64,000 bases of DNA from contig CAWJYV010000008.1 in the NCBI GenBank assembly GCA_963847185.1, positions 512,001 through 576,000 of the forward strand, in the 5' to 3' direction. Numbering within the stretch: position 1 is the first letter of the stretch; each line of letters opens with the position of its first letter. Under the pieces are notes generated by a model. It saw only the letters and a program-made list of their open reading frames with translations. It searched no databases and was not told where the DNA came from. Below are positions 213 through 15,609 of the stretch, one piece after another. Position numbers and translations under genes: made by a program. The DNA is from an uncultured Methanosarcinaceae archaeon. GTDB taxonomy: Archaea > Halobacteriota > Methanosarcinia > Methanosarcinales > Methanosarcinaceae.

Positions 213-777
213 CTAATTTTTAAATATTTTAATGAAAATCGTCTTTATGAAATATGCTCTCTGTCTTGATCCCATAAGCTGTAAACATGTTTTCAATCCA
301 TATTGTAGCTATTTTGGAAAAATTAACGCCAAAATCATGGGTTATTATCAGCTTATAATGGCCTTCGCAATCTGTGTAATCGATAGTATCGATCCAGCTA
401 GTTATCTTGAGATTGACGATCAGCCCATCTATAACTTCTTTTAGACTACATTCCTCAAGAGACTTCTGAAAGTATAACTCTATTGTATATTCTATGGTTT
501 TATTCCGGATAAAAAGCTCACTTAGCAGCTCAATATCAGCAGTTTCTATTAGCAATTTAAATGTAGTTTTTTCGATAATAACTAATGATTTTGCCTTTTT
601 AAGGCGCATCCAATATTTTTCTTCTAGGGATAATGCAGGTCCCTTTTTTGAGCTGTTTTCCAGACATTCCAGTGCAAATTCTAAGGTTTTTTGCTGTGTT
701 TCATATTTTTCGGCTTGTTTTTTTAATAATTCCCAATGTTTCTGCGAGATTGTAGTGGAAATTCGGTGTGTTTTCAA
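213..777 (-). CDS. Hypothetical protein, putative transcriptional regulator (RHH-like N-terminus), divergent from the PatA-like gene; probable frameshift near the 3' end
   Basis: 182-aa ORF 229..777; N-terminus RISTTISQKHWELLKK...LEFALECL looks ribbon-helix-helix-like; a shifted frame at ~240 continues as TIFIKIFKN* to 213. Confidence 0.55.
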
Positions 778-1050
778 AATCGTTCACCCCAAATTTCAGA
801 CTTTTTTGAATTCATACAATTTCTCGAAATCGGGCAAATGATCATATGCTTAAAACCTGCAATTATTTACACATATTTCTACGGTGTTGGACGTATTTGA
901 TTTGAGTACAACCACAAGTAAGAATTAGTTCACTAATTATTTTTCCATCCGCACATCAAACGAATATGCGCATTCTGTACATATGTTATCTGGATAGCAT
1001 ATTTCTACCTGCGTATTTTATTTTAGCTTTGTTCACAGTAAAAAAATGCT

Positions 1051-3239
1051 ATGAGACTTGCAGATCAAAGTGAAATATTGGATGTAATCATGAAATCAAC
1101 AGAGATTATGGAGAACATTGAAGGAGATGCAAATATTTGCATTGCAGTCCTTGACGGTCCGGTTGACCTAAATCATCCTTGTTTCAACAAAACCAAGATA
1201 ACAAAAATAGAAACTTTAGTTTCAGACGTTACTGAGAGAGGACCAAGTGCATACCACGGAACTCATGTTGCTAGCTTAATCTTTGGCCAGCGTAGCAGTT
1301 CCATTCATGGTATTGCTCCTGGCTGTCGTGGACTTGTAATTCCTGTTTTTGCAGATGGGCCTGATGATTCGATTACCCCCTGTTCTCAGATTGATCTCGC
1401 TCACGCCATCACACAAGCCGTTGAACACGGAGCCCATGTAATAAACATCAGTGGTGGGGAACTGGTTTCCTCTAGTGAACCTCATCCTCTACTTGACAAG
1501 GCTGTTCGTCTTTGCGCCGAAAACGGTGTTTTAATTGTTGCAGCTGTGGGAAATGACGGATGCCAGTGCCTCCATGTGCCAGCCGCCATTTCTTCGACCC
1601 TTGCAGTAGGGGCAATGGATGCCCGGGGAATACCACTTGACTTTAGTAATTGGGGGAAGCCGTATCAGATTAATGGTATTCTTGCACTTGGTGAAAAATT
1701 ATTGGGAGCTGTGCCTGGTGGGGATGTCACCATCAGAAGCGGCACCAGCTTTGCCACTCCTATTGTTTCTGGTATTGTTGCTTTGCTGTTGAGCATCCAG
1801 AGACAAAGGGGAAACAAACCTGATCCCCACGCTGTGAGGGATGCCATTCTCCAGAGCGCTTACCCTTGTATCCCTTCCGAAAGTTTAGATTGTTCTCGTT
1901 ATCTAAGAGGCCGTCTCAAAGTTGGAGGGGCATATGATCTTGTCACAAGAAAACAACAAGCTGTGACTTACAGTACTAATTCAGTACAACAAATTCAAGA
2001 GAGTGTGAACGTAAGACTGGTGGAATCTTCCAAAAAACTGCCTGTTCTTGGCGTGCAGAATGCGGAATTCACAACACTTAATCCGGAGATAGCAGCGCCC
2101 TCTACTCTGAGTTCCACTTTGGACGCAATGAAAGCTCTGGAAAATCCTGATTCTATTGAGTCAAAATCAATAGATATAGAGAAGAACGAACAAACGAAAA
2201 ACCAGACACCGGAGGATAATATGACCGAAAATATAGAAGGAACATGTGGTTGTCCAGAAGGAAAGAAGATTGAAGACAAAATTCACGAGCCAACAACTGA
2301 TAAAAGTAAGCTCCAGATCCATGCATCTGATGTACAGGCGACAGAATTTATGATTCCAAACCAAGAGTTTGCTACATCATCTGTCATGCCCTCGGAGGTC
2401 CATCCAGCTGCATGTTCTGCGAATGGACAACAATCCCTCGTATACGCCCTTGGTACACTAGGTTACGATTTTGGGAGCGAAGCACGGCGAGATGCTTTTG
2501 TCCAGAGCATGAAGGATGATAGGCCGAACCCAGACGACCCTGTGCAATTGCTGACCCATTTAGAAAATAATCCTGAGTACGCGGAGTCACTCATATGGAC
2601 CCTCAATATTGAGGAAACCCCTATTTATGCAATCCGCCCTATGGGCAGTTTTGCCTCGAAGACTTACGAGCAGCTACGCGAATTTCTTGATGCACAGCAG
2701 GCAAAAAAAGTAGAAAAAGTTTCGATTCCAGGGGTAATTGTAGGAAAAGTAAAACTCCTTTCAGGCCAGGTGGTACCGGTCATTATCCCAGAACTGCGGG
2801 GAATGTACTGCTGGCGTGAAGAGGCTGTGGTAAAAACTGCAGTGCGTGCAGTGTTAGGTTCGGAGTTCAAAAGTGCCGATGATGATACACTGAAAGCAGT
2901 ACATGCAGGTGCTCGCAACTTCTTAATGCGGGTGTATTACGAGTTCATGAACCTAGGCCGGACTCCACAGGAGCGTGCCATGAACTTTGCCGGAACAAAT
3001 GCATTCCAAGTTGTGGACGTCTTTGAGCAGGCGGTTAAAGAGAGACTGACGCTAGATAGTATTATACGGAAAAAAGCGCGATCTGTAGGCCAGATTCGGA
3101 ATGTTGGGATGTGAAGCTGAAGTTTTTCGATCCGGCCAATATACAACAGGTCGCCAGAAAGGTGTATCGCTTTACTATCGATGTAAGTGACGTGGTGCCC
3201 GTTTCAGTTGGAGAGATACGGTCTTGGTCGGTTTACTAA
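1051..3239 (+). CDS. Cyanobactin maturation protease, PatA/PatG family (PatA-type S8 subtilase plus C-terminal PatA/PatG domain), 1-nt frameshift at ~3064-3075
   Basis: Triad motifs IAVLDGPVD, HGTHVAS, SGTSFATP; CSQIDLAHAITQA and GNDGCQCLHVPAA typical of PatA; C-domain LVYALGTLGYDFGSEARRDAF; the -1 frame 3066..3239 reads TEKSAICRPDSECWDVKLKFFDP...VYRFTIDVSDVVPVSVGEIRSWSVY*, the characteristic PatA/PatG C-terminus. Confidence 0.9.
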
Positions 3240-3258
3240 GCCGGATAAATCTAATTAC

Positions 3259-3293
3259 GTGCCACCAAAGGGGTTCATCGCCTTTGGTGGCAC
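3259..3293 (+). other. Perfect 13-bp stem-loop between protease and precursor genes
   Basis: GTGCCACCAAAGG (3259-3271) / CCTTTGGTGGCAC (3281-3293). Confidence 0.75.
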
Positions 3294-3430
3294 TCACGAA
3301 TTTACAACTATTGTCACTATGATGAGGATGGTGATAATAAGCAGAAACAGTTTGTTTCAAACCGTCACCTGTGTGGTGACAGAACAGCTCCCCTTACGGG
3401 AAAGAACAAAAAGAGATAGGAGGAATTATT

Positions 3431-3640
3431 ATGAAATTAAAAACAAGCAAAACCTGTTGTGAGAAAGTCAGTACAGCGAAAATAGAGTCTGGAATCTGTC
3501 AATCTGGTCTTTGTGAAATGGGTTGCAGTCTAATTCCAAATGCCACTGCAAAGAATATCTGCCTAGCAGCATGTCCAGTAGCAGGCAGTTTAGCAAGCAA
3601 GATTCCGGTGGTAGGCGGGATATTGGGTGGCCTGTTATAA
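3431..3640 (+). CDS. Cys-rich putative RiPP precursor peptide 1 (69 aa)
   Basis: RBS AGGAGG; near-identical to 3653..3865 from AKIESGICQS onward; CX3C-X11-CX3C core; hydrophobic tail IPVVGGILGGLL. Confidence 0.8.
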   Translation: MKLKTSKTCCEKVSTAKIESGICQSGLCEMGCSLIPNATAKNICLAACPVAGSLASKIPVVGGILGGLL

Positions 3641-3652
3641 GGAGGAAATGTT

Positions 3653-3865
3653 ATGAGAGTACCAAAACAAGCAAAACCTGTCATGAGAAATGCCCGTATG
3701 GCAAAGATTGAGTCTGGAATCTGTCAATCTGGTCTTTGCGAAACGGGTTGTAATCTAATTCCAAATGCCACTGCAAAGAATATCTGCCTAGCGGCATGTC
3801 CAGTGGCAGGCGGTTTAACAGGTCTGATTCCGGGAGTAGGCGGGATAATAAGTCGCCTGTTTTAA
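3653..3865 (+). CDS. Cys-rich putative RiPP precursor peptide 2 (70 aa)
   Basis: RBS AGGAGGAAATGTT-ATG; leader MRVPKQAKPVMRN resembling cyanobactin PatE/PatB P-Q-x-x-P-V-x-R leaders; GICQS; CX3C-X11-CX3C. Confidence 0.85.
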   Translation: MRVPKQAKPVMRNARMAKIESGICQSGLCETGCNLIPNATAKNICLAACPVAGGLTGLIPGVGGIISRLF

Positions 3866-3874
3866 TAGCGAGAT

Positions 3875-4099
3875 AGATAGTGCAACAAGAATCGAAGCCA
3901 AAATAGGTCAAATTGAACATTTCCAAGTGAGTGTGGCCTAATTAACAATACCATAAGAAATGCCACATAGCATTTAATGTCGAATGCTTGTGTAGGCAGT
4001 CTTTTTGGATGTAATGCGTTGGGACTTATTGCCAGAACCTTCAAAAAACAACGCGATTGGATAGCTGCAATCAGTATGGTTGCAAGCTATCCCTTATAA
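3875..4099 (+). pseudogene. Heavily decayed precursor-peptide copy 3
   Basis: Shares the 12-mer AAGAATCGAAGC with copy 4; reads RIEAKIGQ...CGLINN...NAT* with frameshift and stop; leader missing. Confidence 0.45.
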
Positions 4100-4141
4100 T
4101 TTCTAGTAGGTATTAAAAACCAGAAATAAGAAGGAAATGTT

Positions 4142-4305
4142 ATGATAGTATCAATGCAGGCAAAACCTGTTATGAGAATGTCAGAAGCAAGAATCGAAGC
4201 AGGAATCAGTCAGTTTAGCATTGCGAAATAGGTTTAACTTAATAAAATGCTGCAGGAAAGGCTGTTTGCCTGGCCGCATACTGCGGTTTTGGAAAGGTTC
4301 TCTGA
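4142..4305 (+). pseudogene. Frameshifted precursor-peptide copy 4
   Basis: RBS AGAAGGAAATGTT-ATG; MIVSMQAKPVMRMSEARIEAGISQFS, then shifted frames give CEIG.NLI..AAGKAVCLAAYCGFGKVL*. Confidence 0.7.
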
Positions 4306-4545
4306 TATTGCTGCAGTACAGACAATTTGTGGATTAATATCTATGTAATCTGGGGCATTTGTTCGTGTTTTTTTAACACACATCTCCCCCACTGATTATT
4401 TGGCAAAAATAATGAAATTGACTTCTTAGAGTTGATGTATAGTTTCGATCGTTCCGGTTGGAAGCTATCTAAATACTCATTTTTTGAGTAGCCCAAAATT
4501 GGGTGCCTCAGAGTAGCCAGAATAAGAACCAAGGAGGAAATTGTT

Positions 4546-4701
4546 ATGAGAACACCGATGCAGGCAAAACCTGTTGTGAGAAATGTCAGTAAGGCAAAAA
4601 TCAAGGTAGGAGTCTGCCAGTCTTCTGATTGCCACGAGAGTTGCAGCACAAAGACAGGGTTTCAGAAGAATTTATGCTTGGAGATGTGCGACTCCGCTTA
4701 A
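4546..4701 (+). CDS. Cys-rich putative RiPP precursor peptide 5 (51 aa; below ORF-track cutoff)
   Basis: RBS AGGAGGAAATTGTT-ATG; MRTPMQAKPVVRNVSKAKIKVGVCQSSDCHESCSTKTGFQKNLCLEMCDSA*; CX3C-X10-CX3C. Confidence 0.85.
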   Translation: MRTPMQAKPVVRNVSKAKIKVGVCQSSDCHESCSTKTGFQKNLCLEMCDSA

Positions 4702-4903
4702 AGATTTTTATGCTGATCAGTTAAAAGATTAACAGAATATGACTACACTTACGGCTTATTCTACCGCAAGCAAAGTAAGACATATTTCATGCTTTTAGTA
4801 TAATGTCCGCTGCTAAATTATTTACAAATACGGTGAAATTTAATGTTAGACGATTGCTAAATAATATAAATATGGTAATAATATATTTTCAAGAGGGGAA
4901 GTT

Positions 4904-5733
4904 ATGGGAAAAGGTATGGCGTTAACAATCGGACTGAATGCCGTCGACCGAAGCATTATGCGGGATGGTCGGGAGAATTGGCTGCATGCGAATTCGATGC
5001 AGTCGATTATGCAGAGATTGCGAAGTCTAGAAATTTTGAGGTTAAGACCCTCCTTACCAAAGAAGCTACCAGGACAAATGTAATCGATGAAATCTCCAAG
5101 GCAGCAAACTCGTCGAAGGCCGGAGATATGTTCATGTTGAGTTATTCTGGTCATGGCGGCTGGTTGACGGATTTGAATGACGACGAAGAGGATGGAATGG
5201 ACGAGACCATGTGTTTGTATGATGGTCATTTAATCGATGACGAATTAAACGCTCTATTTGCAAAGTTCGGTGAAGGAGTTCGAGTTCTATATTCGGACAG
5301 CTGTCACAGTGACGGTTAAAAAATGGTGTTTTTAGAAACGATTGAAAATAAGCCGGAAAACCGAGGAAAAAAATCCTCAAGCTCGTACCGTTACATGCCT
5401 AATGATATTTGATCCGGTTTATATGGCAAACCAGGCTTTTTATAACAAGATATTACAAGACGAAAGCTTATGAATGCCGGGGACGATATCAAGGCTACTT
5501 TGTTGCACATATCGGGATGCCAAGATAACCAGTTTTCGAGAGATGGGATGAGGAACGGCCTTTTTACTTCCAAACTATTATACGTGTGGAAACACGAAGG
5601 TTGCGATAAAAATTACAGACAGTTTTACGATGGAATCTGTAAACGAATGCCATCTACGCAAACTCCAAATTTTTATATCACAGGTAAGATCGATCCAAAA
5701 TTCGAGAAGCAACAAGTCTTTAAGTTTGATTAG
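4904..5733 (+). pseudogene. Caspase-family (C14, metacaspase-like) peptidase, multiply frameshifted
   Basis: MGKGMALTIGLNAVD / KHYAGWSGELAACEFDA; catalytic YSGHGG and DSCHS; C-terminal ISGCQDNQFSRDGMRNGLFT in ORF 5470..5733. Confidence 0.85.
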
Positions 5734-5960
5734 TTTTAACTGTAACTATTCAGTTTATCAGAAGGGGCTTATTGATGAGTTTATCCCAAAACCAAAGTTT
5801 CTTCTCAAATTAATAAAAGTTTTAGAACTATAGTCTATGATAAAAAACTCGATTAATCGTTCATAATTCGAGATTCAGGGAACCGATTTTGAGTTTTGGG
5901 ATGAGCTCTATATTTATTTAATTTTGTAATAACTGAAATCAAGAGTACAGGATTGAAATA

Positions 5961-6956
5961 ATGATAACAAGAAATATGCAAGATACTAAGGATATCGAAA
6001 AAAAACTTCGTGGTTATCTTTTTGGCACAGCCTGTGCTGACGCTCTCGGACGTTCTGTAGAACATCTTACTCTTGAGCAGATTAAAGAAAAATACGGCGA
6101 AAAAGGCATTCTTGAATACCCCCTGGATTCTCCCTGGACTGACGATACTCAATTAATGCTTGTGCTTTCAAGAGGTCTGCTTCGTGGAGCAGAACTTGAA
6201 CTTCCCGAACTTATGGGCCGTATAGCAGAGGAACTTGTGCTCTGGCTGGATGAACCTGATCTGGGAGCAGGAGCAACTTCCAGAGGTGCAGCTCTAAACC
6301 TTAAGGGTGGAGTTCACTGGAGCAAATCCGCAGTCACGTCAAAAACATGCGGAAGCCTGATGCGGGTTGGAATTCTTGGTTTCGTTTATCGGAATGACCC
6401 TGAAAAACTTATTAAAGCTGCCCTGTTATCAGGCAGAATTACTCACAACCATCAGGTTTCAGATGCTGCATCCATTGCAGGGGCATATGCAGTGAAACTG
6501 GCTCTTGATGGAATTGAACCTGAAGAAATGTTTGAACCTCTTCTCAGGGTAACTGAGGGGATTTCTCAGGAATTCACGGATGCCCTGGAGAAATCGTATG
6601 AAACGGCTCATTCCGAACTGGAAAATGAAGATGCATTGAAGAAGCTGGGACAGGGCTGGTATGCAGATGAAACCTTTGCCCTTGCCTATTTCTGTACTTT
6701 GCGTTACCATGATGACTATAAAAAAGCAGTGCAAATTGCAGTAAACATAACTGGAGATTCGGATTCAGTAGGCAGTGTTGCAGGAGGTATTCTTGGAGCG
6801 AAGCTGGGAATTGAGGCAGTGCCTGTCTCCTGGATTGAAGCTCTCAGAGATAAAGAGAAACTGGAAGAAATGATTTGTCCTCTGCTTGAAAAGTATTTTC
6901 AGGTTTCAGGCAGTGAAAACGCTCCTGAGCTTAAAGATTATTGGGATAATAAGTGA
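5961..6956 (+). CDS. ADP-ribosylglycohydrolase family protein
   Basis: ADALG, WTDDTQ, GSLMR, TH and GDSDSVGSVAGGILGA motifs. Confidence 0.9.
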   Translation: MITRNMQDTKDIEKKLRGYLFGTACADALGRSVEHLTLEQIKEKYGEKGILEYPLDSPWTDDTQLMLVLSRGLLRGAELELPELMGRIAEELVLWLDEPDLGAGATSRGAALNLKGGVHWSKSAVTSKTCGSLMRVGILGFVYRNDPEKLIKAALLSGRITHNHQVSDAASIAGAYAVKLALDGIEPEEMFEPLLRVTEGISQEFTDALEKSYETAHSELENEDALKKLGQGWYADETFALAYFCTLRYHDDYKKAVQIAVNITGDSDSVGSVAGGILGAKLGIEAVPVSWIEALRDKEKLEEMICPLLEKYFQVSGSENAPELKDYWDNK

Positions 6957-6965
6957 GGTCCTGAG

Positions 6966-7403
6966 ATGGATTTTTCTGAAAAAGGGGTTTACTGTCTAGT
7001 ATTCGAAAATCAAGAATGTAACCTCGAAATTGGAAAAAAAGGTGAGTTTTCGTTTAGTTCAGGTTTTCACGTATATGTGGGCTCTGCTCTTGGTTCAGGA
7101 GGCTTGAAAAGATTAAAAAGGCATATGGACTTCTCCAGGAATAAAGACCGAAATCCCAGATGGCATGTGGATTATCTTCATTCGAGCCCTTCTTTCAGGA
7201 TGGTTTCAGCGGTTTGTGCCCCTACTCTTTCCAGGCTTGAGTGTGAACTTGCCAGCAGGATCGGAGGGGGTTTTGTGTCTGGCTTTGGATGTACGGATTG
7301 TACATGTAGATCTCATCTTTTTTGCAGGAAAGAAATTCCGATTTCAGAGATTACTGAAGTTTTTGAAAATCTGGGACTTTCAGCTTTTGTGATTGAGCTT
7401 TGA
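6966..7403 (+). CDS. GIY-YIG/DUF123 family nuclease-like protein
   Basis: KGVYCL, YVGSALG, RLKRH, WHVDYL, GFGCTDCTCRSHLF. Confidence 0.85.
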   Translation: MDFSEKGVYCLVFENQECNLEIGKKGEFSFSSGFHVYVGSALGSGGLKRLKRHMDFSRNKDRNPRWHVDYLHSSPSFRMVSAVCAPTLSRLECELASRIGGGFVSGFGCTDCTCRSHLFCRKEIPISEITEVFENLGLSAFVIEL

Positions 7404-7416
7404 GCCTCTTATTTCC

Positions 7417-7482
7417 TTTTCCTATTCTTTTCCTATTCTTTTCCTATTCTTTTCCTATTCTTTTCCTATTCTTTTCCTATTC
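7417..7482. repeat. 11-bp tandem repeat (TTTTCCTATTC) x6
   Basis: Six perfect copies read directly. Confidence 0.95.
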
Positions 7483-7624
7483 TTCTTTTTTTCTTTTCCT
7501 TTCTTTTCCTTATAATTAAAAGGAAAGCTTAAAGTGAAACAAGATTTTATCTTAAAATAAGTTATCTGAAAAACAAGATTTTTCTAAGTTACTAAAATTA
7601 TATTTGTTTAATCAGGGGACTTCT

Positions 7625-9175
7625 ATGGAACAGTTCTCTTTTATTGCCTCTATGCCTGACAGATCCGGAGCGTTACACAGGGCAGCTGAGATTATCACTC
7701 GATATGAGGGGAACATTAACAGGATACAGTATGACCGCAGAATAGATCGACACATCGTATTTTTTGAAGTGACTGCTGTTTCAAAGGCTTATGAAAAGAT
7801 TCGCGAGGAACTGGGGAAAATCGGTTATCTTCAGACTTCTCTGCAGCCTGTAGCTTTTCTGAAATTCCATGTCTATCTTCCTAACTGTCCTGGAGCTTTG
7901 TTTGATTTTTTGAACTATATTACTTCTTCAGAGGCAAATATCACTTTTCTTGATTTTGATGATCGAGGGCAGCATCCAGAACGGCTCTTAGTAGGTCTCA
8001 ATATAGAGAACACCGGCCTGATTGATTCACTACTGAATCAGCTAAAGTCCAGGTACAGGCTCGAGATTATCGAGTACGATACAACAGGGGAAAAACTTGA
8101 TGATACGGTGTTTTATCTTCGGTTGGCTCAGAAATTGAGGTCTTTTATTGGGAGTGCTGAAGACGTTTTCTTGATGAGATTCCTGCATGATATTAACCAT
8201 ATTGCCCAGGAACTCTCAAATCTTCAAAAAGATCCGATTGAAGTTTTTGAAAATATCCTTAAGGTCGGAGATTGCTTAAACCGGACATCGGGAGAGAATT
8301 TTTACGCCGATGTACAGAGAATTCGAATAAAGGACGATATCGAGCTCTTTTGTTTTCAGCCTCCCTGCGGAGGTAATATCTATCTCTTTGATACTCCTTC
8401 AGAAAGGGTTATGATTGACACAGGTTATGGAATCTATTTTCAAGATATTGTGAATATGTTCCAGCACTATGGGCTTGGAGATCTAAGGCGGCTTAAAAGA
8501 ATTTACATTACTCACGCCGACGCCGATCACTGTGGTGCTTCAGGTTTTTTCCCTGTCCCCTCTTATCTTAATCGTGAAACTCTTCTGGTTATGCGGGAAA
8601 CCAGCAGATCTTACGGGTCCAGTAACCAGGGATGTATTCTGGAAGAAGTTTATACGAAAATAATTAATCTTTTTTCCAGGTTTACTCCTCCCTCGGACAT
8701 AATACTCTTTCCTGAAATCTACTCCTCTAATGAATTAATTGAAAAAAGGGGTGCATTTCCTGTAATTGACAGATTCCAGATCGCAAACCTGAATTTTGAG
8801 GCTCTTGAAGGTCTGGGAGGGCATATGCATGGCGAAGTTTTCTATTTATGTCCTGAGGAGGGGCTAATCTTCCCTGAAGATGCATTAATCAATTTCAAGA
8901 GCTTGACCTCTGATAGGACAGAGTATAACGTTCTGGCTGATTACCTCATGACATCTGTAAATGTTGACAGCAAGCTTGCGCGGGAAGAGAGAAATGCTCT
9001 CCTTTCTCTCATTTCTGACATTGATGTAAAACTTATAGGAAAAAATAGAAAATGCTTGATTTGTTGTGGGCATGGCTCTATATCAGTACTCGAAAACGGA
9101 AAACTTGTCGAATACAAAAGTTCCGAAAGATATATTGCAGGACATAAACCTTCTGCTTTTCAAGACAAGTTATAA
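7625..9175 (+). CDS. ACT-domain / metallo-beta-lactamase fold hydrolase
   Basis: Two N-terminal ACT-like segments (PDRSGAL, PNCPGAL); MIDTG; THADADHCG; GGH; CGHG. Confidence 0.85.
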   Translation: MEQFSFIASMPDRSGALHRAAEIITRYEGNINRIQYDRRIDRHIVFFEVTAVSKAYEKIREELGKIGYLQTSLQPVAFLKFHVYLPNCPGALFDFLNYITSSEANITFLDFDDRGQHPERLLVGLNIENTGLIDSLLNQLKSRYRLEIIEYDTTGEKLDDTVFYLRLAQKLRSFIGSAEDVFLMRFLHDINHIAQELSNLQKDPIEVFENILKVGDCLNRTSGENFYADVQRIRIKDDIELFCFQPPCGGNIYLFDTPSERVMIDTGYGIYFQDIVNMFQHYGLGDLRRLKRIYITHADADHCGASGFFPVPSYLNRETLLVMRETSRSYGSSNQGCILEEVYTKIINLFSRFTPPSDIILFPEIYSSNELIEKRGAFPVIDRFQIANLNFEALEGLGGHMHGEVFYLCPEEGLIFPEDALINFKSLTSDRTEYNVLADYLMTSVNVDSKLAREERNALLSLISDIDVKLIGKNRKCLICCGHGSISVLENGKLVEYKSSERYIAGHKPSAFQDKL

Positions 9176-9394
9176 AGAAAGTTGAAGACAATTGGGATTT
9201 GAGCAAATGAGTTTAGAGCAAATAGCTTGGAATTGATAAAAATAAATAATCCTGCAGATTTAATCAAGCCATTTTTTAATGATTTCCGCAAAATCCATCT
9301 TAGTTTTGATCGGGGGTAAATCCGATCTTTGTCTTATACTCAAACTGTATTTCAAATATTAGCAAATGCTATTAGCCATTTGTAAACAGGAGAT

Positions 9395-9712
9395 TTATTC
9401 TCCTCCTCTACCTCCGAAACCCTGGCTGCTTCCTCCAGATGATGAGCCACCTCCTCCAGACCCGCCAGTTCCTGTTCCACCGAAACCCTGACTTTTTCCT
9501 CCTCCCCCCTGGCCAGTTTGTTTACTGGCTGATTCCATCGCCTGCATAAGAGAGTCAACTGAGTCATATTCTCTATCAGGGATCATTTGCAGGGATTCAA
9601 TTATGTCGCTTGAAGCTTTTTGTTTTCTAACCTGCTCCATAATCTGGTTTTTTGTCGCTGGAAACTGCATGTTCCTAAACATTTCCTGCATCATGCTTGG
9701 ACTTGCCCTCAT
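9395..9712 (-). CDS. DUF2795-like small protein with Gly/Ser-rich tail
   Basis: MQFPATKNQIME...LQMIPDREYDS motif; RBS-like AAGGTG. Confidence 0.75.
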   Translation of the reverse strand: MRASPSMMQEMFRNMQFPATKNQIMEQVRKQKASSDIIESLQMIPDREYDSVDSLMQAMESASKQTGQGGGGKSQGFGGTGTGGSGGGGSSSGGSSQGFGGRGGE

Positions 9713-9959
9713 ATCTTTTCACCTTCCCCATGTTTTGTGGATTTACCCCCATTCCGACATTTATATTAATCATATAAATAAATACTCAATTATATATTTT
9801 AGAACCATTTCTACTGATGCCTAAAATTCTTCTATTAATTTACGCTATTTTATTGGATAAAGCTTGTAAAATTCTATATTGGAAGTTAAAACAGAAATTC
9901 CCAAAAAGAGATCCACAAACGTATATTGGAAAGTTTAAGTAAACATTTTTAAAAAGAAA

Positions 9960-13670: not shown

Positions 13671-14849
13671 ATGCGAGTATATGATAGTCCGGTTCTTAAA
13701 GTAAATGCCAGTACAGAAAACGAAAAAATGGTGCTAGATGCTGAGGGTCCCCTTTCCCAGCTTGCAAAACCTTTCCTGAAGCGTATAAATAGTATTTTTG
13801 CGGAAGAAAAACCTATTTCAATGGACGAAGATGAGATTATTTTCTCTACGTGGATCCCGCCTATTCCTGGACCTGTCTTCAGCAGGGTAATAAGTGCTGA
13901 GATCTCAGCTATCAGGAAGAAAAGAGTGCCTGATCAATTCTCAATAGGAATTACTGCCCGCTGTCCCAACCGCTGTATTCATTGTGGAGCAGCTGATATC
14001 AAGCCGGAAAAAGAACTGACTCTTGACGAAATCAGCGATGCTGTGGACCAGAGCCTGGATCTTGGAGCCTATCTTGTTTCCTTTGACGGTGGGGAAACTA
14101 TGCTTCGAAATGACCTTGTTGAGATGGTTGCCAGAGTGGATAAATCAAGGGCAATTGCAACCTGTTTCACTTCGGGTTTCAAGCTTTCTGAGGAGAGGGC
14201 AAAAGAGCTTAAGGCTGCAGGTCTCTATGCTGCAAGAATCAGTATTGACAGTCCTTTTGAAGTTGAACATGACCGTGTTAGGGGACGAGATGGCGCATAC
14301 AAGGATGCAGTCGCTGGAATAAGGAATGCTCGTAGCGCAGGAATCCTTACTGACATGTTTGTGGTAGTTTCTCCTCACAACATCGATAATCTTGAAGAAT
14401 TCTACACTCTCGCAGCTGATCTCAATATGCATGAACTTTCTATTTATGAAATCATTGCAGTTGGCCGCTGGCTTGATCATGAGGATGAAGTAATCAGCGA
14501 AAAAGATGTATCAAGGCTTGAGAAGTTCCAGAAAGCCATGAATAGTAAACCTGAAGGACCCAGAGTTACCGCTTTCCCATACTTCATGGGGCCTTCCCTT
14601 TTCGGTTGCTTTGCGGGCAGACGCTGGATGCACGTTGCTTCAGACGGGGAAGTCATGCCCTGTGCCTACACTCCATTATCCTTTGGAAATATCTGTGATG
14701 AATCTCTGGAGACTATCTGGAAGCGCATGGGTAAGCATAATGCCTTCAAAAAAGACACTCCCTATTGTATGATGCGTAACCCTGATTTCCGGAAGGAGTA
14801 CATCCATACGATCCCTCAGGGCGCAAAAATTCCTTATAGGCTTAAGTAA
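13671..14849 (+). CDS. Radical SAM/SPASM-domain protein
   Basis: CPNRCIHC motif, DGGE, C-terminal GCFAG...GEVMPC...FGNI...C. Confidence 0.9.
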   Translation: MRVYDSPVLKVNASTENEKMVLDAEGPLSQLAKPFLKRINSIFAEEKPISMDEDEIIFSTWIPPIPGPVFSRVISAEISAIRKKRVPDQFSIGITARCPNRCIHCGAADIKPEKELTLDEISDAVDQSLDLGAYLVSFDGGETMLRNDLVEMVARVDKSRAIATCFTSGFKLSEERAKELKAAGLYAARISIDSPFEVEHDRVRGRDGAYKDAVAGIRNARSAGILTDMFVVVSPHNIDNLEEFYTLAADLNMHELSIYEIIAVGRWLDHEDEVISEKDVSRLEKFQKAMNSKPEGPRVTAFPYFMGPSLFGCFAGRRWMHVASDGEVMPCAYTPLSFGNICDESLETIWKRMGKHNAFKKDTPYCMMRNPDFRKEYIHTIPQGAKIPYRLK

Positions 14850-15609
14850 CACTTCTTATGCATTTTTTTTAATTCTATTTTTTGATTAAATTTCTTGAAA
14901 AACCCTCTATATGGATTTTTTCCTGTAAAAGCCCTTTTATCTTGTTTTAATCTGCTCTGGTTTCAGCCTGAGATATTCATACCATTGTTTGCATACGAGA
15001 CCTGCAAGCTCAAGAAGAGTGAATAACATCCTATTTTAGGAATATCCTTTTTTTAGAAGGTTATTTTTCTTTTAAAACTTGCCCATTTACAAAAAATTTT
15101 CAAAGCGTTTGGTCGAATTTATTTGAATTATATCTTTACTTTCTGAGCTTTTTAGGGCACTTTCTCTGAAAATGGGGGGTTTTAACTCTTTTTTGTCATC
15201 CATATCTTCCCTAATTTTGTTAGTTAACTTTGAAATCTTTTTCCTTCAATAATCCCTATCTTCATTCAAAATAACTGTGGTTATGCTTCTCATTTTCTCT
15301 TATATATTCCGGTTATATAATTTTCTAATTCTTAATTATATTCCACTGTTTGTATTTAATTATTTTTTACTGTCTTATTTAATCTTTTGGATTTTGACCC
15401 TATATTTTGCTATTTATATTTTTTATTTTCTTAAAAAATTCTTATATCTTCAGAATATGATGATTAATCGTTATATATTCACGCCTCTCCCTTGATAAAA
15501 CCGAAGCTGTTATATAGTTCTATTACGAAGGATTTGTTAACTACCTCCATTGGAGTAGGGATTTTTAATTATTAATTTATATATTAAATTTTGAGAGACG
15601 GAGATTCAC

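Follow-up and report, generated by a model that had tools for sequence, protein, structure and literature searches.

The 64,000-nucleotide stretch of DNA analysed here (hereafter the window; G000:C8:512001-576000, from an uncultured Methanosarcinaceae archaeon, a Methanosarcina) holds a partly damaged copy of a module in which a gene for a PatA-type leader-cutting protease is followed by genes for short Cys-rich peptides. We propose, with a probability of roughly 0.7, that this is a two-part leader-cleavage module, derived from cyanobactin pathways, in which the protease would release Cys-rich mini-peptides from their precursors. Judged by comparison with the known systems, the module is like the first step of cyanobactin maturation rather than a cyanobactin pathway. 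The window's own genome, G000, comprises 4.04 Mb on 10 contigs with a GC fraction of ~0.40. All coordinates are window positions unless another contig or piece is named, and G-numbers denote the genomes of the comparison set.

The protease is encoded on the + strand by an open reading frame (ORF) of 687 codons (1051..3114). Pfam analysis of this ORF revealed a Peptidase_S8 domain (E 7.7e-31), a PatG_D domain (E 7.8e-20) and profile positions 6-65 of a PatG_C domain (E 7.3e-15), in the order S8, long linker, PatG_D and first part of PatG_C. The NCBIfam model TIGR03895 (PatA/PatG family cyanobactin maturation protease) matches the same ORF over profile positions 1-551 of 606 with 603.8 bits against a cut-off of 421.05, so that the PatA-family protease with a PatA/PatG C-terminal domain, which the original prediction had read from the bare sequence, is borne out by profile search. 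The catalytic triad is intact, with Asp35, His69 and Ser233 of the 687-residue ORF marked by the motifs AVLDG at 32, HGTH at 69 and GTSFA at 231, and the triad columns are invariant in an alignment of 48 protease homologues. The true start is likely the ATG at 1090, because the orthologues begin at the equivalent of Met14, and inspection of the N-terminus revealed no obvious signal sequence.

Comparison with solved structures revealed that the S8 part (residues ~21-311) best matches the PatA/PagA protease domains (PDB 4h6w, 4h6v, 3zxx and 3zxy), with 308-324 bits and E values of 2.3e-95 to 1.2e-90, whereas the macrocyclase domains of PatG (4h6x, 4aks and 4akt) match at just 160-166 bits. These whole-domain scores assign the enzyme to the PatA type, the N-terminal or leader protease, and not to the macrocyclase type. 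Moreover, residues 462-673 match the PatG DUF structure (4uvq) with an E value of 1.2e-43. Although no solved structures match better in sequence than the PatA/PagA domains and 4uvq, the window protease differs from them in a longer linker, in a C-terminal end displaced by a frameshift and in the type of its putative substrate.

The frameshift is evident from the fact that the end of PatG_C and of TIGR03895 continues in an ORF of another frame. This second ORF (3111..3239, + strand) holds the displaced last 42 codons of the protease and matches PatG_C positions 79-115 (E 2.8e-08) and TIGR03895 positions 567-605. DNA alignment and frame translations place a 1-base deletion within 3060..3070 on the + strand, near 3063-3066, which lies outside any homopolymer and is absent in 8 orthologous sequences; the gap between the two high-scoring segment pairs at this site is 47 nt here versus 48 nt in the intact orthologues. 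The deletion shifts the frame such that the ORF ends at 3114 and costs the protease ~55 C-terminal residues, the correct frame resuming in the 3111-3239 ORF. The frame-corrected protease that the original prediction had implied is thereby given its lesion and its missing tail.

Downstream of the protease, a six-frame profile scan covering 3201-5000 found four leader-bearing small ORFs, pep1 to pep4, all on the + strand. Five related Cys-rich peptide genes had been predicted from the sequence; the leader-bearing family on the + strand stands, but its members number four, and two of them, pep1 and pep3, are damaged. The ORFs 3977-4099 and 4247-4348 were considered for a fifth gene and rejected, as both fail the family profile. 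The strong ribosome-binding sites reported earlier for four peptide genes are indeed present, with GGAGG upstream of pep1, pep2 and pep4 and GAAGG upstream of pep3.

The four genes differ in their state of preservation. pep1 (3431..3640) encodes a 69-residue precursor with a scrambled leader box, where a 2-base and a 1-base deletion relative to pep2 and two orthologues put nine leader codons out of frame, while the cleavage box and a 44-residue core with four Cys are undamaged. An intact orthologue with the same core (P0121) sits on an 8,282-base contig that also carries an exact copy of pep4. pep2 (3653..3865) encodes an intact 70-residue precursor, consisting of a 26-residue leader and a 44-residue core with the pattern CX3C-X11-CX3C and a Gly-rich hydrophobic tail. 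In the degraded pep3 (4142..4305), the leader ORF halts after 29 codons (4142-4231), and 19 residues of a core remnant, 74% identical to the core of an orthologue, follow in another frame at 4246-4302. pep4 (4546..4701) is intact and encodes a 51-residue precursor whose core of ~24-25 residues has the pattern CX3C-X10-CX3C.

When 1.84 billion representative proteins were searched with a profile of the four window peptides, 25 of them matched at E<=1e-3. Twenty-two of these are only 29-84 residues long, one being pep3 of the window itself; the remaining three comprise two long proteins aligned over 18 profile residues only and one 207-residue call in which the peptide forms the last 48 residues. 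The small matches share the N-terminal sequence M-[KR]-L-P-K-Q-A-K-P-V-M-R-N-x-S-T-A-x-I-E-A-G-[VI]-x-Q-S, whereas their cores are divergent and Cys-rich. Pooling the peptides of the window, of eight Methanosarcina loci, of 15 metagenome loci and of the representative proteins gave 66 unique sequences. Their leaders display two boxes, an N-terminal box 1, LPKQAKPV(M/V)R, and, around residues 22-26, a box 2, G-[I/V/L]-x-[Q/P]-S; the motif G[ILVM]x(1-2)[QPASK]S is found at positions 12-34 in 49 of the 66. Most predicted cores span 24-53 residues; the Cys count is 4, 6 or 8 in nearly all of them, with a CX3C...CX3C arrangement in many. A second leader subtype, ending in ...G-Q-T-I-G-x-I-x-P-S, precedes six-Cys cores. 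On inspection the core C-termini are unrelated, and no common C-terminal recognition motif was seen across the 66 peptides. Family peptides with any source name are called "hypothetical protein", and the window peptides matched no Pfam or NCBIfam model at E<=0.01. With their conserved leader and variable Cys-rich cores, the small ORFs constitute a precursor-like family.

To assess kinship of the leaders with known precursors, each of 42 family members was compared on its own, with a permissive threshold, to 18,950 NCBIfam models. The most-matched families were cyanobactin precursors, namely TIGR03678 (8/42 members), NF042906 (6/42) and TIGR04446 (1/42), and two examples viewed closely are matched at the N-terminal box (residues 3-15 or 3-20). 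These matches lie below threshold and are consistent with leader kinship to the cyanobactin precursors. In addition, the box at the leader end has Gly, an aliphatic residue and Ser at the same positions as G(L/V)E(A/P)S, the sequence after which PatA-like enzymes cleave according to a review (PMC10885120).

A canonical cyanobactin pathway with macrocyclic, heterocyclised or prenylated products, whose remaining genes lie elsewhere in the genome, would account for the family of the protease and for the weak matches of the leaders to cyanobactin precursor models. We regard it as highly improbable. The protease is far closer to PatA than to the macrocyclase, and no second TIGR03895 match over the cut-off exists in G000, where the four further matches are either generic N-terminal S8 parts, reaching no farther than profile positions 1-203, or the protease gene's own displaced tail. 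The single YcaO of G000 is on contig C7, another contig than the module, and no YcaO was seen among the ORFs at the related loci. Furthermore, the precursors all stay under the curated cut-offs, the predicted cores mostly measure 24-53 residues, and they have no conserved C-terminal recognition motif.

A direct comparison gives the same picture. Cyanobactin pathways, in which PatA and PatG act on PatE-type precursors, share with the module the protease family, the domain order S8-linker-PatG_D/PatG_C and an N-terminal leader, and their cut site G(L/V)E(A/P)S is resembled by the putative cut-site box G[IV]x[QP]S here. They differ from it in having a second (macrocyclase) protease, a heterocyclase or a prenyltransferase, all of which the module lacks (PatB and PatC were not searched for), and in their short cassettes with C-terminal recognition sites, whereas each precursor here bears a single long core (24-53 residues, 4-8 Cys). 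The precursors here also remain under the cut-offs of TIGR03678, TIGR04446 and NF042906, and the host is a methanogenic archaeon. Because a second protease, membership of a curated precursor family, a C-terminal recognition site and a linked heterocyclase (which some cyanobactin clusters can do without) are all missing, the module as read from its sequences is not a cyanobactin pathway.

The pairing of protease and peptides extends well beyond the window. Of 177 family genomes, 7 contain a TIGR03895 match over the cut-off, each of them belonging to the window's genus, and two more genomes carry remnants; among 400 sampled other genomes of the phylum, no protease match was found at E<=1e-60. 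At all eight Methanosarcina loci compared (those of G144, G112, G111, G149, G161 and G162, plus the remnants in G152 and G153), the protease or what remains of it has leader ORFs immediately downstream, in numbers from 1 to ~10 per locus. A scan of a genome collection with the protease gave one locus, in Methanosarcina sp. T3, with peptide ORFs identical to those of the G144 locus. From the peptide side, metagenome contigs were scanned with the leader word alone, taken from a 12-row alignment, which yielded 15 loci. The protease is immediately upstream in 11 of the 11 informative ones, and the remaining four contigs extend for less than 170 nt upstream of their first peptide.

The module-bearing metagenome contigs range in GC from 0.385 to 0.635; one of them is archaeal, as it carries a TFIIB gene, and others have bacterial-looking genes. 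On a plasmid of the cyanobacterium Gloeocapsa sp. PCC 7428, an unannotated leader-bearing Cys-rich ORF follows an annotated PatA/PatG protease and is matched by the archaeal profile with an E value of 6e-07 (L087 5855-6166). Similarly, an unannotated 62-codon Cys-rich ORF follows the PatA/PatG protease on plasmid pREB2 of Acaryochloris marina, with a weak match of E 0.038 (L088 5951-6148). The adjacency of protease and peptides, as judged from gene order and profile matches, is thus strongly conserved across archaea and bacteria. Synteny had been named beforehand as a test of the original prediction, and it holds at the eight Methanosarcina loci, the eleven informative metagenome loci and the two cyanobacterial plasmids. 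The predicted "minimal archaeal system" holds in its first word, as the module comprises a protease and precursors only, but not in its second: by the same comparisons the module is present in further methanogens as well as bacteria, including high-GC metagenome contigs and cyanobacterial plasmids, and is not an archaeal speciality.

Two loci deserve separate description. The G149 locus (G149:C44:41000-60000, piece positions 5175-8767) contains one protease followed by ~10 tandem precursors, whose cores fall into three or more types, with a DDE transposase inside the peptide array. In G126, the chromosomal slot that the module occupies in the window holds a split relative of the module on the - strand (G126:C69:45000-64000, piece positions 5932-8802), consisting of a stand-alone PatG_D+PatG_C protein (314 residues), a stand-alone S8 protease (316 residues) and two Cys-rich ORFs of 104 and 114 residues, whose N-terminal motif is unlike that of the window peptides.

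The conserved gene order bears on whether the small ORFs are substrates of the protease at all. Four-Cys motifs can bind metals, and the ORFs might instead encode independent Cys-rich metal-binding or regulatory proteins that merely travel along with the protease gene. This seems quite improbable given their strict adjacency and co-orientation at every informative locus in archaea and bacteria. In addition, ~26 N-terminal residues are conserved while the remainder varies, a pattern typical of leaders and not of folded metal sites, and this stretch finishes with a box similar to the known PatA cut site.

Another explanation accepts the peptides as true substrates, of the class of peptides that ribosomes synthesise and that are modified after translation (RiPPs), but has them modified by enzymes encoded elsewhere, for example by radical S-adenosylmethionine (radical-SAM) enzymes that introduce thioether or other Cys cross-links, with the PatA-type protease removing the leader last. 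The N-terminal box is conserved far from the cut site and looks like a recognition element for a partner other than the protease active site, and the even Cys counts and fixed spacing suggest defined cross-links. Anaerobes often cross-link Cys-rich peptides by radical-SAM enzymes. SCIFF and ranthipeptides, for instance, are short Cys-rich ribosomal peptides of strict anaerobes that need an adjacent radical-SAM maturase; in the module, by contrast, the scanned neighbouring ORFs gave no radical-SAM maturase family. ORF lists and Pfam scans revealed no modification enzyme, nor any other further gene, common to the eight Methanosarcina, the longer metagenome and the two plasmid loci. Together with the searches of G000, these scans indicate that the module includes no YcaO, second protease or other shared enzyme, in line with the earlier statement that no YcaO heterocyclase, PatF prenyltransferase, macrocyclase or exporter is visible in the window. 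Moreover, the occurrence of the module in very different organisms (contig GC 0.385 to 0.635) argues for self-sufficiency, and the C-terminal domain of the protease itself could read the leader box. Modification by distant enzymes is therefore considered unlikely.

We favour the cleavage model outlined at the beginning, in which precursors of 51-70 residues would be made in the cytoplasm, each with a leader of ~26 residues bearing the two conserved boxes. The PatA-type subtilase encoded upstream, which appears to have no signal peptide, would then cut after the Ser of the second box; both the cleavage event and its site are our reading of the motifs. The cores set free by this cut would be 24-44 residues long and have even Cys counts, the Cys being arranged here as CX3C-X10/11-CX3C and predicted by the model of pep2 to form a helix-loop-helix. 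In this model, residues 28-33 and 39-48 form helices with one CX3C each, whereas the leader is unstructured and the Gly-rich tail disordered. The product would most likely be a linear, leader-cleaved peptide, since the module contains no heterocyclase, macrocyclase, prenyltransferase, exporter or immunity gene; its Cys may pair, bind metal or be cross-linked by unlinked enzymes. Multiplication and diversification of the precursor genes, with ~10 at one locus, and their position in a variable chromosomal slot would suit a role in competition or signalling.

Several observations weigh against the cleavage model. The strict cleavage motif is missed by 17 of the 66 peptides, although most of them have near variants in our reading of the sequences. 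All matches to cyanobactin precursor models are below threshold, the best E value being 0.0057 and the cut-offs 39.6-75 bits, and none of the three window peptides tested against these models reaches E 0.01. The pep2 model has a mean predicted local distance difference test (pLDDT) score of only 61.6, although residues 31-50 reach block values of 75-80. The module loci have no exporter, immunity gene or thiol oxidoreductase in common, and disulfides are difficult to envisage in an organism that is strictly anaerobic. In the window itself the protease is truncated by a frameshift, the N-terminal box of pep1 is lost and pep3 is broken, such that the module may be inactive here; a search of sequencing runs found no RNA run containing the window stretch.

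Structure searches with the peptides gave little further information. Profiles of the peptides matched nothing significant among solved structures, with best E values of 1.2 and 0.45; the latter, a small Tim protein with a twin CX3C motif, was treated as a chance match. Look-up of pep2 in the ESM Atlas gave a best score of 0.84, which is under the useful range.

Whether the copy in the window still works is a separate matter from the cleavage model for the family, and we put the odds that it does at about even. The copy is decaying: the protease has one lesion, pep1 has two, pep3 at least two and the neighbouring caspase-like gene at least three. The claim that the system is making peptides in this genome is hence doubtful. 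A stronger statement, that the module here is a dead relic whose protease and damaged precursors are non-functional and whose locus is eroding beside an insertion sequence (IS) element, falls only a little short of an even chance in our estimation. It draws on the protease deletion outside a homopolymer, which none of the 8 orthologous sequences shares, on the -2 and -1 deletions of pep1, on the truncation of pep3 with its displaced core remnant, on a caspase-like gene in at least three pieces and on the split transposase directly upstream. Relatives decay as well: the G152 protease is multiply broken with several stops, G153 keeps a C-terminal piece only, and the G149 protease has an independent +1 insertion 20 nt from the site of the G000 deletion. 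Against a dead relic stand the intact catalytic domain and triad, the intact pep2 and pep4 with their GGAGG sites and the fact that the protease loses just the last ~55 residues, in a domain without known function.

The lesions could also stem from the assembly. General assembly noise was rejected as their cause, because frame-split ORFs are rare elsewhere in G000: twenty 20-kb pieces of G118, spaced evenly, supplied 102 ORFs of at least 250 residues (44,993 residues in total), of which a single one has a split frame in G000. A local assembly fault at the module site is possible, since the nearby essential gene purA is frameshifted too, and this likewise speaks against the relic. purA, encoding adenylosuccinate synthetase on the - strand, lies ~6 kb upstream of the window (G000:C8:497001-513000, piece positions 8548-9844) and is split by a frameshift here but forms one frame in three relatives. 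The run search returned three metagenome DNA runs with 5-9% of the sampled words; their contigs are short diverged relatives that skip the frameshift site.

Turning to the genes around the module, the divergent gene expected next to the protease is present as an ORF of 182 codons on the - strand (229..777), yet its proposed part in the cluster as a regulator-like gene falls away. In our scans it matched no Pfam or NCBIfam model, so that a regulator is not shown; its precomputed label is PF27313. Homologues are found in 34 of the 177 family genomes, compared to 7 of 177 for the protease. In six genomes that have no protease or peptides at the site and show both of its flanks (G113, G118, G011, G133, G132 and G014), the gene stands between the gene for the proteasome-activating nucleotidase PAN and that for an ADP-ribosylglycohydrolase, and it adjoins PAN in two further genomes. 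Since the same site is occupied in module-free genomes, the 182-residue gene is, on the evidence of synteny, a resident neighbour of the slot and not specific to the module. The stretch between it and the glycohydrolase gene is a variable slot whose cargo differs by species. A paralogue with 48% identity flanks the module in G161 in a different chromosomal context, and a looser association of this gene family with the module may exist. Among the genomes searched, the family is confined to Methanosarcina and one sister genus and comprises two paralogue types, each beside variable cargo; a second member in G000 is at G000:C1:11591-12124. By eye only, the N-terminus of the 182-residue protein looks like a ribbon-helix-helix, and its single-sequence fold model, with a mean pLDDT of 47.6, is too poor to use.

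On the other side of the peptide genes lies a caspase-like Peptidase_C14 gene in at least three pieces (4904..5733, + strand). Pfam analysis revealed Peptidase_C14 fragments at 4978-5319 and 5470-5733, covering profile positions 21-129 and 159-225, respectively. The N-terminal piece is in another frame, and the second piece ends at an in-frame stop (5317-5319) right after a Cys-His-Ser-Asp stretch. The metacaspase of the original prediction is accordingly present in fragments, as a multiply broken pseudogene, and it lies outside the module, because it is a pseudogene here and all eight related loci are devoid of it.

The sequence upstream of the window, whose inspection had been recommended, contains a split IS transposase directly adjacent and housekeeping genes farther out. 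The transposase-like gene is split into ORFs of 263 and 100 codons beside the 182-residue gene (G000:C8:497001-513000, piece positions 13932-15033). Downstream, the region 5961-9175 encodes an ADP-ribosylglycohydrolase (PF03747), a DUF123 protein and a 523-residue protein, which are syntenic in all relatives with or without the module. Within it, a short T-rich stretch (7393-7519) gives repetitive FSYSFPILFLFF-like ORFs in two frames and is probably a non-coding pyrimidine-rich spacer. A scan for promoters and terminators returned counts equal to those of shuffled sequence, being made for bacterial promoters and uninformative for an archaeon.

The module seems to be undescribed, as a full-text literature search, with subscription journals and supplements outside its reach, turned up no paper on a PatA-type protease that goes with Cys-rich precursors, nor any on a cluster of this kind in Methanosarcina. 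The cyanobactin proteases, which are textbook examples of RiPP enzymes and useful tools of peptide engineering, are known almost only from macrocycle pathways of cyanobacteria. Here, a PatA-type protease is paired solely with long Cys-rich precursors, in a combination that recurs across methanogens, contigs of varied GC and cyanobacterial plasmids and whose peptide genes are mostly unannotated. A bolder extension, which we hold to be rather unlikely as a whole, would see a self-sufficient cross-domain system in which structured Cys-rich mini-proteins act as antagonistic or signalling peptides, in methanogens as a new kind of archaeocin, with PatG_D/PatG_C as the leader-binding element for the LPKQAKPV-type box, which the peptides appear to have in common with cyanobactin leaders, and the minimal module as the ancestral core of the cyanobactin pathways. 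The archaeal peptide antibiotics called halocins are likewise ribosomal, in part Cys-rich and released from a larger precursor; to our knowledge, however, they involve no PatA-type protease and come from haloarchaea rather than methanogens, and we know of no sequence relation between them and the module peptides.

The value of the finding is lower for this genome, given that its copy is partly broken, and intact orthologues such as the Methanosarcina sp. T3 locus are preferable for further work. Very few ribosomal peptide natural products are known to us from methanogens. If the proposed cleavage is true, the module would define a family of genetically encoded mini-proteins that is both large and unexplored, would offer a two-gene test bed for the DUF domain of cyanobactin proteases and for the conserved N-terminal part of cyanobactin leaders, and would open up ribosomal peptide natural products in methanogens.

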